Below, one piece after another: positions 7,877-62,789 of a stretch of DNA of 64,000 bases. The translations under genes were made by a program, and so were the position numbers. A model generated the notes under the pieces. That model saw only the letters and a list, made by a program, of their open reading frames with translations. It was not told the origin of the DNA and searched no databases. Origin of the DNA: Gemmatimonadales bacterium (GTDB taxonomy: Bacteria > Gemmatimonadota > Gemmatimonadetes > Gemmatimonadales > GWC2-71-9); the NCBI GenBank assembly GCA_050733075.1, contig JBOHSD010000002.1, forward strand, positions 174,649 to 238,648, in the 5' to 3' direction. Position 1 is the first letter of the stretch. Each line of letters starts with the position of its first letter.

Positions 7877-7906
7877 GCCATTGGCTATTGGCCAATAGCC
7901 AATGGC
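7877..7906. repeat. perfect 30-bp palindrome of tandem heptamers, abutting the stop of the TPR gene (possible terminator or REP-like element)
   Basis: GCCATTGGCTATTGGCCAATAGCCAATGGC equals its own reverse complement. It starts 1 nt after the TGA at 7907-7909. It shares the GGCTATTGG/CCAATAGCC core with the element at 59043-59155. Confidence 0.8.
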
Positions 7907-9706
7907 TCATCTTCCTTTACAATACGCCTTCAGCATCGAGGCGATCCGCGGCTTGTACTTCTTGATGATGCCGAGGTTCTTGTCCACGGCCTCGGGGTTG
8001 ACGGACCGGCCGGCGGTAAGGGCCGAATCGGACGCGAGCAACAGCGCCTCCTCCTGCCTGGCCAGCTCACAGGACTTCTGCTTCTCGGCCAGAGGATCGA
8101 TCTTGGGCACCTGGAACAGCGTGGCAAGACCGAGCATGTAGTTGGCGGCAGGATAGACCCTTCCCGATGGGTTGGCGGCCGCGATGGACATCCTCAGCAA
8201 CTCCTCGGCGCCTTCGAGATCCTGCGGCTCCTGCAGCAGTGGGACAGCGGCCGAGTAGAGCAGCGCCGCGGCGTTTTCCTTGGCCTGCGGGTCGCCGTGG
8301 TTTATGGCAAACTCGAGAAACGGCACGGCTTCCTTAGGTCGCGGCGTAAACTTGACCGAGTCGGTCTTCAGTGGAGCGGCTCCCACTGAGACCCCAGCGG
8401 TATCGCGCCGGGGTTGCTCCGGCGGCAGGAGCAGCGCCTTCGCTGCGGACAGGGCGGCCACTACGCCGGTTTCCGTAGTGTCTTTGGCGATGATCCGGTT
8501 GGTGACGGAAATAACGCTGTCCACCTGGCCGGTCATGGAGTACGCCCGATTCAGGTATCCCAGGAGGGTGAGGTTGCCGGGGTACTTGCGCACCCCGATC
8601 TGCGACCACTTGAGCAACCTGACTGCGTCGGGGTTCTCGCCCTCGGCTGCTGCTGCCGAGATCTTGGTGAAGAAGAGAGTGTCTGCCTTGGTGGAGTCGG
8701 TGGCGTACATCGTCTCGAGCGCGTCCACCGCGCACTTGAAGTCACCCAGGAAAAGACAGGCGTTGCTCTTGAGATCGTAGAGATCGGCGTTGTAGGGGTC
8801 GATTTTCAGGCCCTCGTCCGCTACTTCGCGAGCGGTCTCCGGATGGCCCGACTGGAGGAAGTACTTGAACAGCTCCTCACGCAGCCTCTGGTTGGTGGGC
8901 GCAACGCGGAGCATCTGCTTGAAGGCTACCAGAGTGTTGGCGGTGTCGTTGGCCTGCTGATACTGGCTGGCGAGCGCGGTCCATACCGGCAGACTCAGCG
9001 GATCGCCCTTTACCGAGGCTTGCAGATGTTTCACTACCTCGGAACGAGGAGCCTTCCGGTCCATGGCGAGCTGAGCCAGACAGAAGTGGGCCAGGCCATG
9101 ATTGGGGAGCGTCCTGATGGCCTTCCGGGCGGCCTCGGCTGCCTTGTCGGGCTTGCTGGGCCGCTGATCTATGCAGGCTTTCGCCTCAGGGAGCGATTTG
9201 ACCGCTGGGGCAAGCGCCTGAGCCATCTTCTTTCCGAAATCCTCGAGACTCTGTCCCTGCTGGGTGAGGGTCACGACATTTCCGGCATCGTCGTTAACGC
9301 CGACGAGACGGGCGGTCACCGTGAGGCGGCCCCCCTCGCCGCGAGCCATGGTCCCGGTCATCAGCACCCGGGCCTGGATGTTCTTTGCCAGGGTGGTGGC
9401 CAGCGGCGGGCTCAGGATGGCGTCGGTAGGGTAGCCGTACTGCTGCAACGCGTCATTCATCTGGGACTGCTCGATGACGCTGAAGTTACGGCCGACGATG
9501 CTCTTCATTTGCTCCCGCGCCGCAGTGCCGATCTTGACGGCGTCGGCCGAATCGGTGGCGGCAAAGGCAAAGGGGTTGGCCACCATCAGTCGCGGGGCGG
9601 CGACTACAGTCTGGGTCCGGGCACCGCGGGGTATGCCCTGCGCCCACAGCGGCGCGGCAGAAGTCACACCGGCAAGCGCGATCAGAATCACACGGGACAG
9701 GTACAT
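7907..9706 (-). CDS. secreted TPR-repeat protein
   Basis: The ORF track starts at 9769, but those codons overlap tRNA-Val. The internal ATG gives MYLSRVILIALAGVTSAAPLWAQ, a signal peptide. The rest is TPR-like helical repeats. Confidence 0.7.
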   Translation of the reverse strand: MYLSRVILIALAGVTSAAPLWAQGIPRGARTQTVVAAPRLMVANPFAFAATDSADAVKIGTAAREQMKSIVGRNFSVIEQSQMNDALQQYGYPTDAILSPPLATTLAKNIQARVLMTGTMARGEGGRLTVTARLVGVNDDAGNVVTLTQQGQSLEDFGKKMAQALAPAVKSLPEAKACIDQRPSKPDKAAEAARKAIRTLPNHGLAHFCLAQLAMDRKAPRSEVVKHLQASVKGDPLSLPVWTALASQYQQANDTANTLVAFKQMLRVAPTNQRLREELFKYFLQSGHPETAREVADEGLKIDPYNADLYDLKSNACLFLGDFKCAVDALETMYATDSTKADTLFFTKISAAAAEGENPDAVRLLKWSQIGVRKYPGNLTLLGYLNRAYSMTGQVDSVISVTNRIIAKDTTETGVVAALSAAKALLLPPEQPRRDTAGVSVGAAPLKTDSVKFTPRPKEAVPFLEFAINHGDPQAKENAAALLYSAAVPLLQEPQDLEGAEELLRMSIAAANPSGRVYPAANYMLGLATLFQVPKIDPLAEKQKSCELARQEEALLLASDSALTAGRSVNPEAVDKNLGIIKKYKPRIASMLKAYCKGR

Positions 9707-9768
9707 TCCTCGACCTCCAACAGGACGGCCCTCACGAGCCAGGAACAGCCGCGCAGGCGCGGTACACA

Positions 9769-9843
9769 TGGGCGAAGAGGGATTCGAACCCCCGACATCC
9801 TGCGTGTAAGGCAGGCGCTCTGAACCAACTGAGCTATTCGCCC
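9769..9843 (-). tRNA. tRNA-Val (TAC)
   Basis: Reverse complement GGGCGAATAGCTCAGTTGGTTCAGAGCGCCTGCCTTACACGCAGGATGTCGGGGGTTCGAATCCCTCTTCGCCCA. Anticodon loop is CTTACAC. T-loop is TTCGAAT. Confidence 0.9.
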
Positions 9844-9912
9844 GGGATCGGCGCCCCGACTACGGTTTTTAGCGATATTGCAGGGACCGTGCCGTGATGA
9901 CCGACACTCTAG

Positions 9913-10104
9913 CTACGATGCGATACCGATCGGAAACAGCACGCAATAGCCCAGGACCAGGATCACCGCGGCCGCGCTGGGATGGCCGGCGCGCAGGGTG
10001 AGGTACCCCGCTACCAACACCATGACCGCCACAGCGAGAATGATCAAGTTGCGTGGCGCCAGTAAAAAGTGCCGCGGTGGAGGAGAAGGGCGAGAATTTG
10101 GCAT
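9913..10104 (-). CDS. small two-TM membrane protein (DUF3098-like pattern)
   Basis: 63 aa with two hydrophobic helices (LIILAVAVMVLVAGYL and AVILVLGYCVLFPIGI). Lies 15 nt downstream of the peptidase gene. Family assignment is from memory only. Confidence 0.4.
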   Translation of the reverse strand: MPNSRPSPPPRHFLLAPRNLIILAVAVMVLVAGYLTLRAGHPSAAAVILVLGYCVLFPIGIAS

Positions 10105-10119
10105 AGACCATGGACGCTA

Positions 10120-61074: not shown

Positions 61075-61514
61075 TCGTGCTCCTGGTCGATCTTCTCTAC
61101 TCGGCGGCTGTGCCGGCCACCGGCGAACGCGGTATTCAGCCAGGTCTTCAGGATCTCGACTCCCTCGTCCTCACTCACGAAACGCGCCGGCAGAATGAGC
61201 ACGTTGGCGTCGTTGTGCTCCCGGGCGAGCCTGGCGAGCTCGGGTGACCAGACCACGGCGGCGCGGACGCCCGGGTGGCGGTTGGCTGCGTACGACATCC
61301 CCAGTCCGGTGCCGCAGAGCAGGACGCCTCGGTTGGCGTCGTGATGCTCTACCTTGGACGCCACGCCGTGGGCGTAATCCGGATAGTCGGTGGATTCGGG
61401 ACTGTGGGTGCCGAGGTCCAGCGGCTCGTAACCCAATGCCCGCAGCTCCTCAACCAGCCGCTCCTTGAGCTGAAAGCCGGCATGGTCCGACCCGATGGGA
61501 ATGACTTCGGCCAT
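61071..61514 (-). CDS. rpiB: ribose-5-phosphate isomerase B
   Basis: Start at [35 protein letters not shown]. 4-nt overlap with the glyA start. Confidence 0.9.
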
Positions 61515-61536
61515 TGGGTTTAAGGTAAGAGATGGT

Positions 61537-61627
61537 GGGAAGGACGGAAAGGACGGCAAGGCTGGTGGCCTGAGGGTCTAGAAGTTGCAGCCTCTGCGGA
61601 CCTTCCCGTCATTCCCGTCTTGCCCGT
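61537..61627. repeat. inverted tandem 8-9-mer element at the 3' end of the dehydrogenase gene
   Basis: Left arm is GGGAAGGACGGAAAGGACGGCAAGG (61537-61561). Right arm is CCTTCCCGTCATTCCCGTCTTGCCCGT (61601-61627). The dehydrogenase TGA (61609-61611) lies in the right arm. Confidence 0.8.
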
Positions 61628-62667
61628 GGCGCCATCCACATCCTGTCGAGCCCCGCCACCGCCGAGATCCGCTGCTCGGCGAGCCGGTCGGCGGCGCGGT
61701 AGGTGGGGATCCGCTCCCGGCGGGCGATCTCGAAGATGCGGAGCAAGGTCTCATAAATCTCGCCGGCTTTGCGTTTGGCCCGCTCCACCGGCCAGCGGTG
61801 AAGCTCGCCGTAAACATTGATGACCCCACCACCGTTGATGACGTAATCGGGCGCGTAGAGAATCCCCCGCCTCTCCAGCTCGTCCCCGTGACGGTCTTCA
61901 GCCAACTGGTTGTTGGCTCCGCCGGCGATGATCTGGACCTTGAGCCGCGGCAGGGTGTCGTCATTGATCGTCGCCCCCAAGGCACAGGGGGCGTAGATCT
62001 CGGCTTCCTGATCGTAGATGGCGTCGGGTGGCACGTCTCGGGCACCGAACTCCTGCACTACCCGTCTGACCTTCTCGGCGTCGATATCGGTGACGATGAG
62101 CTTGGCGCCCTCGGCGTGCAGATGCTGGATCAGGTGATAGGCCACCTTACCGCAGCCTTGTACCGCTACCGTTTTGCCCGACAGGCTGTCGCTTCCCCAG
62201 CGAACCTTGGCCGCCGCCTTCATGCCCACATACACTCCGTAGGCGGTGACCGGTGAAGGATCTCCCGACAGACCGAGCAGGCCCGCGACGTGATCAGTCT
62301 CCAGCTTGATGTACTCCATGTCTGAAGGACTGGTGCCGATGTCTTCCGCCGTTATGTAGCGGCCACCCAGCGTCTCGATGAACCGGCCGTGGGCGCGGAA
62401 CAGCGCTTCCCGGTCCGGCCGCTTGTTATCGCCGATGATGACCGACTTGCCGCCTCCCAGGTTGATTCCGGCAACCGCCGACTTGTAGGTCATGCCCCGG
62501 GCCAGCCGCAGGGCGTCGGTAACGGCTTCCTCGGTGCTGGCGTACTCCCAGAAGCGGGTGCCCCCGAGCGCCGGGCCCAAAGTCGTGTCATGGATGGCGA
62601 TGATGCCAAAATACCCACACGAGGGGTCGTGCGAGAGCAGGACCTGCTCGTGGCCCATCGCCTGCAT
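61609..62667 (-). CDS. leucine/valine/phenylalanine dehydrogenase family (Glu/Leu/Phe/Val DH)
   Basis: [42 protein letters not shown] and [13 protein letters not shown]. Start uncertain: ATG 62667 (MQAMGHEQ) is used here. An ATG at 62805 would add about 45 residues encoded by the repeat element. Confidence 0.85.
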
Positions 62668-62706
62668 GGCCGCGAAGATGTCGGACCCTGCTCCAGGAGC
62701 GGAAAC

Positions 62707-62789
62707 GGCGAGAGGTGAGCGGTGAGCGGGGCCGTTGGTTGGGTCCGCCGAAACACTCCCGCTTACCGCTGACCGCTTACCGCTCACGC
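62707..62789. repeat. inverted tandem-heptamer element at the 3' end of hbd
   Basis: Left arm is GGCGAGAGGTGAGCGGTGAGCGGGG. Right arm is CCCGCTTACCGCTGACCGCTTACCGCTCACGC. The hbd stop TAA (62777-62779) lies in the right arm. Confidence 0.8.

Follow-up and report, generated by a model that had tools for sequence, protein, structure and literature searches.

The 64,000-nt stretch of a Gemmatimonadales bacterium chromosome considered here (GenBank assembly GCA_050733075.1, contig JBOHSD010000002.1, positions 174,649 to 238,648 of the forward strand; hereafter, the window) harbors six loci where short tandem repeats are assembled into inverted pairs, and a seventh with a single array. Together with their counterparts in related genomes, these elements are, judging from their sequences, a lineage-wide class of predicted "inverted tandem-repeat hairpins". 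They share one anatomy (two inverted arms of tandem units around a spacer), extend from a stop codon to the next start, impart a position-specific structure to certain operon junctions, turn over rapidly at the DNA level, and recombine between their arms. It is quite possible, albeit somewhat short of probable, that they represent intercistronic RNA hairpins whose repeat-built stems arise and persist via DNA slippage and inter-arm recombination.

The source is a soil bacterium of the order Gemmatimonadales. The window (G+C ~0.66, genes almost all on the minus strand) represents ordinary chromosome comprising the dcw cell-wall cluster, chemotaxis genes, ileS-lspA-rluD, ftsH-tilS, split ligD genes, and enolase. 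It includes the gene string 3-hydroxyacyl-CoA dehydrogenase (HCDH) - Glu/Leu dehydrogenase (ELFV) - rpiB - glyA - two small genes - yjeF. The comparison set consisted of the window plus 80 genome loci and 80 metagenome loci around yjeF, i.e., 161 sequences totaling 1.83 Mb (referred to by L numbers where necessary); the relatives found were all metagenome-assembled genomes (MAGs) of Gemmatimonadales. Neither the genome scan nor the metagenome scan returned relatives above ~85% yjeF amino-acid identity. Hence, in the absence of strain-level relatives of this MAG, the micro-evolution of the elements was read from other close pairs.

Architecture of the Paired Arrays

All six loci proved to be inverted pairs of tandem 7-9-nt arrays, in agreement with the preliminary description of this stretch, whose coordinates and unit assignments were both accurate. 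Loci 1 and 4 are built of GGCTATT-type units, loci 3 and 6 of GTGARCG/GTAARCG units, locus 2 of GCGGGGCA, and locus 5 of the 9-mer GACGGGAAG, i.e., at least four unit families occur among six loci within 64 kb. According to an inverted-repeat search, arm complementarity amounts to 80-91% at loci 2, 3, and 4, and the element census (see below) pairs the arms at loci 2-6; locus 1 is a palindrome with a 13-bp stem, GCCATTGGCTATT / AATAGCCAATGGC, and a 4-nt loop. Arrays with an inverted partner (period 7-11, length of at least 20 nt) numbered 10 in the window, as compared with a mean of 0.017 and a maximum of 1 in 60 second-order Markov simulations.

The arms had been expected to pair, and this was confirmed by the folding analysis, in which each locus was compared with 200 shuffles of its sequence. 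The predicted RNA fold beat the shuffles at all six loci (z -3.5 to -5.4), with 0-1 of the 200 shuffles being as good. The single-arm locus 7, also recognized as such before, is indeed a lone, non-folding array: no fold better than its shuffles was obtained (z +0.3).

The Element Class Across Gemmatimonadales

A shared architecture with varying sequence, initially described for the window, turned out to be characteristic of this genome and ~160 related genomes. The census of the comparison set yielded 87 non-redundant two-arm elements, with a unit period of 7 in 70, 8 in 15, and 9 in 4 cases. The median arm is 29 nt long (~4 units), the median total length is 106 nt, and the median spacer is 39 nt, with a range of 0-130 nt. 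More than 20 unit families are represented across the relatives, the most frequent being GTGAGAG/GTGAGCG (23), GTGAACR (10), GGCTATT (9), GCGGGGCA (7), and GTAAGCG (6), along with many singletons. A genome-specific choice of units was considered and discarded: element pairs from the same genome had a common unit in 6 of 24 cases vs. 10% between genomes, which constitutes a weak enrichment.

The placement of the elements is highly uniform. Wherever both flanking genes were called, these genes were co-directional (76 of 76 elements; convergent 0, divergent 0), and none of the available intergenic regions of at least 60 nt between convergent (39) or divergent (83) genes contained an element. Three elements of the census are intragenic. 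Measured from orthologue-defined gene ends, the array starts at a median of 0 nt from the stop codon (within -21..+6 in 56 of 71 cases) and ends at a median of 11 nt before the next start.

The same picture is seen in the window (Table 1). In minus-strand genes, the stop codon directly adjoins the arm at loci 1 and 4 and is located inside the high-coordinate arm at loci 3, 5, and 6, while the other arm closely approaches the next ATG (loci 4-6) or the 5' end of a tRNA (loci 1 and 3). Since the loci end 1-38 nt before the next start or tRNA, they fill the junction and do more than trail the upstream gene. Thus, the adjacency to stop codons claimed earlier for five of the six loci holds, with respect to minus-strand genes, at loci 1 and 3-6 (locus 2 has no stop), and the designation "3'-flanking" is correct with regard to gene 3' ends and incomplete with regard to the other side, where the elements also abut the next start or tRNA. 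This abutment had been missed in the preliminary description, as had the position of one locus inside an open reading frame (ORF) and the published analogue from Xanthomonas (PMC4692102).

Table 1. Array-bearing loci of the window and the genes adjoining them (coordinates are those of the window; strand "-" denotes minus)
Feature	Coordinates	Strand	Composition or context	Tandem Repeats Finder arrays (period)	Predicted fold dG (z)
Locus 1, minimal GGCTATT-type palindrome	7877-7906	-	arms 7877-7889 and 7894-7906, loop GGCC	7876-7906 (7)	-20.7 (-4.0)
Locus 2	23952-24053	-	GCGGGGCA-type octamer arms 23952-23985 and 24024-24053; 38-nt spacer	23952-23985 + 24024-24053 (8)	-66.6 (-5.2)
Locus 3	53215-53313	-	GTGAACG/GTAAACN heptamer arms 53215-53235 and 53287-53313; 51-nt spacer	53287-53313 (7)	-45.5 (-3.8)
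Locus 4	59041-59155	-	GGCTATT heptamer arms 59041/59048-59071 and 59129-59155; spacer ~57 nt	59048-59071 + 59132-59155 (7)	-59.4 (-5.4)
Locus 5	61537-61627	-	GACGGGAAG-type 9-mer arms 61537-61561 and 61603-61627; 41-nt spacer	61540-61561 + 61603-61627 (9)	-42.8 (-3.5)
Locus 6	62706-62789	-	GTGAGCG/GTAAGCG heptamer arms 62706-62729 and 62759-62784 (on to ~62789); 29-nt spacer	62706-62729 + 62759-62784 (7)	-43.0 (-3.75)
Locus 7	29169-29203	-	lone array of G-rich octamers (CGGGGAAG x4, sense strand), no partner arm	29170-29203 (8)	
tRNA-Asp	7776-7851	-	5' end 25 nt downstream (sense) of locus 1		
TPR/FlgO-like gene	7907-9706	-	upstream of locus 1; stop TGA 7907-7909 touches locus 1		
910-aa TPR protein gene	22046-24778	-	holds locus 2 in a hypervariable inter-repeat linker, ~residues 242-276		
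tRNA-Met	53125-53199	-	5' end 15 nt past the 3' (sense) arm of locus 3		
DivIC/FtsB-like gene	53296-53598	-	stop TAA 53296-53298 within the sense 5' arm of locus 3		
yjeF/nnr, NAD(P)H-hydrate epimerase/dehydratase	57493-59046	-	ATG 59044-59046, 1 nt from or overlapped by the 3' arm of locus 4		
h64, small conserved 64-aa gene	59156-59350	-	stop TAA 59156-59158 adjoins locus 4		
rpiB	61071-61514	-	ATG 61512-61514, 22 nt past locus 5		
Glu/Leu/Phe/Val dehydrogenase gene	61609-62667	-	stop TGA 61609-61611 in the 5' arm of locus 5; start ATG 62665-62667, 38 nt past locus 6		
3-hydroxyacyl-CoA dehydrogenase gene	62777-63637	-	stop TAA 62777-62779 in the 5' arm of locus 6		

Polarity of the Arms

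In 81 of the 87 elements, G exceeds C in the 5' arm, so the G-rich array comes first on either strand. Candidates for the six exceptions are found among lower-skew families, e.g., the GGCTAAC type and one GGCTATT variant. As an outcome of this polarity, C-rich, start-codon-free sequence is situated beside starts and stop-rich sequence beside stops, and C-rich RNA is never exposed unpaired. Indeed, ATG or GTG occurs in the 3' arm at 0.14 vs. 4.69 per 100 nt. The 5' arm is rich in stop triplets; in ~60% of the elements, every 5'-arm unit contains TGA, TAA, or TAG, which, given the period of 7, places stops in all three frames.

In a rare arrangement (L084:6334-6451 and L107:7436-7511), the stop is followed by a G-rich array and the next start is preceded by a C-rich one, the two being non-complementary, e.g., (CGGGTCAG)5 followed by (TCTTTCCC)4. 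Hence, the inward G-rich polarity is possible without hairpin potential.

Upstream of yjeF, the 5-15 nt separating the hairpin from the start are C/T-rich (..CTCC, ..CCCC) at most loci, e.g., at 59047-59060 of the window, and no Shine-Dalgarno motif was found in this interval, whether or not the genome bears arrays. Among 400 sampled genes, only 66 have GGAG within 20 nt of the start. Mimicry of the Shine-Dalgarno sequence by GAGGTGA-type units was also considered as a general property of the arrays and rejected, as GGCTATT and GCGGGGCA do not fit it.

Arrays in Coding Sequences

Locus 2 resides in frame inside the ORF of a 910-aa TPR protein. The full-length homologues mostly consist of one protein of ~885-920 aa, in which a hypervariable linker occupies this very point. 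The linker of the window protein is 17 aa longer than that of its closest homologue, whose DNA contains no array. Judging from these comparisons, locus 2 is an element that arose in frame within a putatively dispensable protein linker.

Locus 7 starts 6 nt past the lspA stop (29210-29212). It is probably located in the N-terminal coding region of the rluD-like gene, because the peptide it would encode (..AGKRGSG..) is partly conserved. G-rich arrays occur at the same place in L162 and L163.

Conserved Positions and Fast Sequence Turnover

The elements are found at boundaries between blocks of overlapping, coupled genes, and no arrays were detected at overlapping gene pairs. They cluster at a small number of junctions. 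Detection per junction was 29/68 at h64|yjeF, 12/48 at ELFV|rpiB, and 7/50 at HCDH|ELFV; the DivIC|tRNA-Met junction also bears related arrays in many genomes. Locus 6 is homologous to the element occupying the same junction in L003 and L007, and the junction of locus 4 (h64|yjeF) represents an orthologous hot spot in the relatives. The latter junction passes the threshold for structure (z < -2) in 89 of 111 genomes, with a median z of -5.4, as compared with medians of +0.13 (yjeF|h490), +0.15 (h490|thiL-like), and +0.52 (thiL-like|eno) at roomy control junctions of the same gene string. The units that make up the h64|yjeF hairpin vary among genomes, and some genomes possess unrelated palindromes or a short GC hairpin instead. 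In a few genomes, the h64 stop and the yjeF start are just 1-4 nt apart.

At the same time, the sequence of the elements changes rapidly. In L159 and L160, which have identical yjeF, 47 of the 77 differences over 9.9 kb are concentrated in the 130-nt ELFV|rpiB element; in both of its arms, one genome has GTCAAC units where the other has GTGAAC, and the spacers are unalignable. At 90-94% yjeF nucleotide identity, 47% of the junctions are less than 60% alignable. The number of units differs in the close pairs L118/L123, L053/L138, and L043/L045, and, on the yjeF tree, elements of the GGCTATT and GAGGTGA types are intermingled within the clade to which the window belongs. Clean loss of an element with intact flanks was documented in three close pairs (L140/L142, L020/L101, and L008/L097). 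No target-site duplication was found at these three occupied/empty pairs; in L140/L142, the missing block is flanked only by 2-3 nt of microhomology. Such microhomology is typical of deletion and, hence, counts against a mobile element.

Several additional features of these junctions were recorded. At DivIC|tRNA-Met, the comparison covered the window (53200-53295), L016, L017, L018, L020, L096, L099, and L100, and L043, L045, L047, and L107. The array-bearing junctions display two conserved stretches, GGGTTATTTT(T) where the spacer begins and ACGCT..GAAGAC immediately ahead of the tRNA, and the array-free ones a sigma-70-like promoter, CTTGAGT-N17-TAGAAT or TACAAT.

A second dispersed palindromic family, ~GTCATCCYGAGCGMAGCGARGGATC, yielded 46 matches in 28 related loci, 44 of them intergenic, and none in the window (e.g., L025:2517-2600, L034:1788, L031:7432-7486, and the spacer of L007:9806-9995). 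This family occurs alone at h64|yjeF in some genomes and nested in the spacers of heptamer elements in others. In L044:6485-6560, the HCDH|ELFV junction, array-bearing elsewhere, is occupied by a GTAG-tagged palindrome, GTAGGGGCGA...TCGCCCCTAC, reminiscent of repetitive extragenic palindromes (REPs); the word GTAGGGGCG of this palindrome is present in 7 loci.

Relationship Between the Two Arms

Copy numbers of the two arms differ by at least 1.5 units in 19 of the 87 elements. No mirrored unit variants were found between the arms, and their complementarity is no better than after permutation of the unit order. Together, the unequal copy numbers and the unmirrored variants indicate that the arms slip independently. 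The arms are complementary as families, in any register, since a permuted unit order pairs equally well. Accordingly, an inverted duplication of the whole arm and register-specific pairing were both rejected, with only 24 of 68 elements exceeding the permuted mean. Selection on the sense-strand RNA gained no support either: transition mismatches that are G.U-compatible on the sense and on the antisense strand number 70 vs. 74.

It is established that inverted repeats, when they recombine with each other or when replication switches template between them, invert the segment they enclose. Reverse-complemented, the L002 spacer matches that of L014 at 38 of 41 positions, and among the spacer pairs with clear homology, 6 are inverted and 9 have the same orientation. 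The spacer inversion indicates that the arms interact at the DNA level, which offers a way to keep them alike without selection on RNA.

Related Repeat Systems

In E. coli, REPs stabilize the upstream mRNA and, when situated within ~15 nt of the stop codon, affect translation of the upstream gene. They are single imperfect palindromes of 20-40 nt with a GTAG/CGTC tag; a genome contains one family, or a few, in high copy, along with a dedicated REP-associated tyrosine transposase (RAYT). The elements described here resemble REPs, and the bacterial interspersed mosaic elements (BIMEs) and REP doublets (REPINs), as intergenic palindromic repeats at gene 3' ends inside operons. They differ in having arms that are untagged tandem arrays of many families, with no RAYT seen among those genes of the window that were scanned or annotated.

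The mycobacterial interspersed repetitive units (MIRUs) are tandem repeats in operon junctions whose ends overlap the flanking stop and start and whose copy number varies between strains. Their units are direct, 46-100 bp long, carry small ORFs, and form no hairpins. The likeness to MIRUs thus consists in tandem repeats filling intercistronic junctions with their ends at the flanking stop and start; unlike MIRUs, the units here are short and inverted and form predicted hairpins.

Rickettsia palindromic elements are palindromes situated in frame within protein genes, and in eukaryotic foldback elements a variable central part lies between inverted arms composed of short tandem repeats. The two types are considered mobile families whose sequence is conserved. 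Locus 2 is similar to the former in its in-frame location. In contrast to both types, no mobility signature was found here, and the sequence differs from locus to locus.

The closest parallel comes from Xanthomonas campestris and X. citri, for which Rehm et al. (2015, PLoS One) reported arrays of the heptamer GGGAATC (PMC4692102). Each genome contains 70-75 convergent array pairs with ~four units per array and the G-rich strand inward; the pairs are intergenic, mostly between co-directional ORFs, and rare between divergent ones (PMC4692102). Sense-strand arrays are found within ~50 bp of the stop, antisense-strand arrays upstream of the following ORF; their length and sequence vary between related species, their position is kept, and their function is unknown (PMC4692102). 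There is essentially one unit, GGGAATC, interpreted as G-quadruplex-forming (PMC4692102). The elements of Gemmatimonadales share with these pairs tandem 7-nt units in at least two copies on each side (period 7 in 70/89, the rest being 8-9 nt), convergence with the G-rich strand inward (81/87), and intergenic placement between co-directional genes (76/76) near the stop (median 0 nt) and the next start (11 nt). Unlike the Xanthomonas arrays, they belong to another phylum, Gemmatimonadota, and comprise more than 20 unit families, several per genome. G-quadruplex repeats were rejected as their description: only 5 of the 87 G-rich arms have at least four G3 tracts and could form a quadruplex, and no GGGAATC unit was found. 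The preference for ~four units, common to both systems, cannot be a quadruplex requirement, as most units here have no quadruplex potential.

Other heptamer arrays include the short tandemly repeated repetitive (STRR) sequences of cyanobacteria, e.g., Nostoc GGGGA(C/T)T (PMC4692102), and the TAACTGA repeats of Beggiatoaceae (PMC4679880). Those are also intergenic and near start or stop codons; they are mostly single and direct, with inverted pairs being rare (PMC4692102), in contrast to the elements described here, where the inverted pair is the rule. According to Mrazek (2007), as cited in PMC4692102 and PMC4679880, heptamers are the commonest long microsatellites in many prokaryotes.

Possible Function and Origin

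If the elements are intercistronic RNA hairpins, the junction would be transcribed within a polycistronic RNA and fold into a 25-40-bp stem, pairing bases just past the stop with bases just before the next start. The hairpin may act as a 3' barrier or as a double-strand-specific processing site, in either case stabilizing the upstream message segment. The stem would be long enough for an RNase III substrate: ~four units (~28 bp) would fit a double-stranded RNA substrate of this enzyme. The last unit ends ~11 nt before the start, leaving the latter without room for a Shine-Dalgarno sequence; initiation at the downstream gene may then require that the stem be cleaved or that its base be melted by a ribosome finishing translation at the upstream stop. 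The origin of the stems in DNA-level dynamics is largely documented by the comparisons above: the number of units changes by slippage in each arm independently, recombination or template switching between the arms inverts the spacer and can help them stay alike, and whole elements are lost and replaced. A stem of tandem units is self-complementary in any register and, therefore, should tolerate the very insertions and deletions that create it. This retained pairing may be why slippage-prone stems persist. From the roles suggested in the preliminary description, that of an mRNA stabilizer appears to be the most plausible, along with other roles of an intercistronic RNA hairpin, albeit it is inferred only.

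A number of observations weigh against the RNA hairpin. Transcription through the element, its folding in vivo, and its stabilizing, processing, or coupling roles are all deduced from the sequence. Mismatches between the arms bear no sign of selection on sense-RNA pairing (G.U-compatible 70 vs. A.C-type 74), the in-register complementarity is no better than with permuted units, and inter-arm recombination could preserve the palindromes without any RNA function. The G-first polarity (81/87) is left unexplained. In a coding region, as at locus 2, an RNA-processing hairpin would be harmful or irrelevant. Finally, since most of the census comes from one syntenic region, sampled repeatedly across genomes, its counts are not independent.

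Many of these observations would be expected of a functionless, self-perpetuating palindromic microsatellite, in which slippage expands the arrays, recombination maintains their complementarity, and selection removes only gene-damaging copies, so that the survivors pile up between the stop and the next start or in dispensable linkers. We consider this explanation rather unlikely, though with a real chance of being correct. It readily accommodates the lack of asymmetry between G.U and A.C mismatches, the unit order not mirrored between the arms, the spacer inversions, the frequent deletion and replacement, and the in-frame copy in the hypervariable TPR linker; the ATG/GTG-poor 3' arm and the stop-rich 5' arm fit a filtering by tolerance. 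However, neighboring 70-150-nt junctions of the same gene string are equally roomy and yet unstructured (median z ~0), and h64|yjeF bears some hairpin in 80% of the genomes across order-level divergence, including unrelated short GC hairpins. Moreover, the microsatellite alone does not account for the same unit family being present in both arms nearly always. That last feature would follow if, at a DNA break, the two 3' ends were each extended with templated G-rich repeats by an unknown enzyme and then joined over filler DNA. Such a telomerase-like healing might operate at the junctions, in which case the arrays would not be slippage products; it would also account for the inward G-rich strand on both sides (81/87), the unmirrored unit variants, and the limited set of unit families recurring at different junctions within and between genomes, and it might be the source of the same geometry in Xanthomonas. 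Overall, we give templated addition a very slim chance.

The other explanations invoke known types of elements. Factor-independent terminators or attenuators placed where operons end, such as the hairpins lacking a U-tract that have been proposed for high-GC bacteria, would be in keeping with strong GC-rich hairpins directly after stop codons, with their position at the boundaries between blocks of overlapping, coupled genes, and with the GTGAACG family, which in other genomes ends in ACGCTTTTG with AAAAGCG before it. Suggested already in the preliminary description, this possibility is doubtful and, in our estimate, improbable: none of the six window loci possesses a T-tract, a terminator consensus scan of 52000-64000 (loci 3-6) found no terminator-like site at the elements. 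A sigma-70 promoter consensus scan of the same region found nothing at these loci. As the next start codon or tRNA is only 1-38 nt away, leaving no promoter room, an efficient terminator would silence the downstream gene. A canonical terminator is present directly after tRNA-Asp (7725-7775, minus strand; CACCCCGUCC-CCCC-GGACGGGGUG then UUGUGUU, z -2.9), so the organism also uses ordinary terminators.

Mobile elements, either REP/REPIN sequences moved by a RAYT transposase or transposons of the foldback type or of the miniature inverted-repeat type (MITEs), seem very improbable, even though unit families recur from junction to junction and from genome to genome, presence/absence and replacement distinguish close relatives, the GTGAACG family has conserved ends, and other dispersed palindromes co-occur at the same junctions. 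The "REP-like" label proposed initially gained no support: the arms at the six loci and the units of the census are tandem arrays, neither 20-40-nt imperfect palindromes nor GTAG/CGTC-tagged, and the six loci alone fall into at least four families. Pfam scanning of window genes, along with the annotation of the MAG and of the syntenic locus L162, brought up no RAYT, other transposase, or reverse transcriptase. MITE and foldback elements were likewise rejected, since the three occupied/empty pairs revealed no target-site duplication and copies at different loci of the same genome share arms and not spacers. Rfam covariance models matched only tRNAs in the window and 9 related loci.

The earlier proposal of a binding array for an unknown protein also turned out to be unlikely, given several unrelated unit families within 64 kb. 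We regard a sequence-specific DNA- or RNA-binding protein with one protomer per 7-nt unit, e.g., of the cold-shock/OB-fold kind, as the least probable explanation of all. The regular 7-nt period and ~4 units per arm would suit such a protein, and a 7-nt footprint of the cold-shock domain has been discussed for other heptamer repeats (PMC4679880). On the other hand, units vary within arrays, their copy number is unstable, the families exceed 20 across the relatives, and the arms are almost always self-complementary, which favors intramolecular pairing over protein binding.

Significance

Paired inverted heptamer arrays had been reported a single time, for Xanthomonas (2015), where only one type of unit was involved, a G-quadruplex was the interpretation, and no function was assigned. 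Across the order Gemmatimonadales, this architecture is now seen in more than 20 unit families. Since most of these have no quadruplex potential, the conserved feature is the architecture and not the unit sequence. Any explanation has to meet the position-specific structure at certain operon junctions, the turnover far faster than that of the flanking genes, the G-first polarity, the supply of stop codons by the first units, and the inversion of the spacer. Provided that polycistronic messages are indeed processed or coupled by the hairpins, the instability in unit number would give operon expression a built-in tuning knob.

The elements also mislead gene callers, which extend starts into them or read C-termini through them, and they are likely hot spots of assembly error. 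In the MAG annotation (61609-62805), the Glu/Leu dehydrogenase gene starts inside locus 6, resulting in a 29-nt overlap with the HCDH gene. In L005:6301-6349, the dehydrogenase ORF runs through the ELFV|rpiB element because its 9-mer arrays contain no in-frame stop, which gives this site a false appearance of being empty.

Additional Observations in the Window

LigD, the non-homologous end-joining ligase, is split at 45693-48888 (minus strand) into separate phosphoesterase, ligase, and primase-polymerase genes; this is relevant here only since the repair of DNA breaks is one conceivable source of arrays. In the neighborhood of yjeF, three conserved genes on the minus strand (59156-59350, 59372-59758, and 55888-57360) belong to no Pfam family. 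Their products, of 64 (a CxxC protein), 128, and 490 aa, are present in 66-74 of the 81 sequences formed by the window and the 80 genome loci. Within the chemotaxis cluster, a gene at 16778-18727 (minus strand) encodes a 649-aa protein with two DnaA-type ATPase domains. It is flanked by genes for a small Arf/MglA-like GTPase and a DUF4388(PatA_N)-TPR protein (18724-19326 and 15162-16787, respectively, both on the minus strand), which constitutes an unusual pairing.

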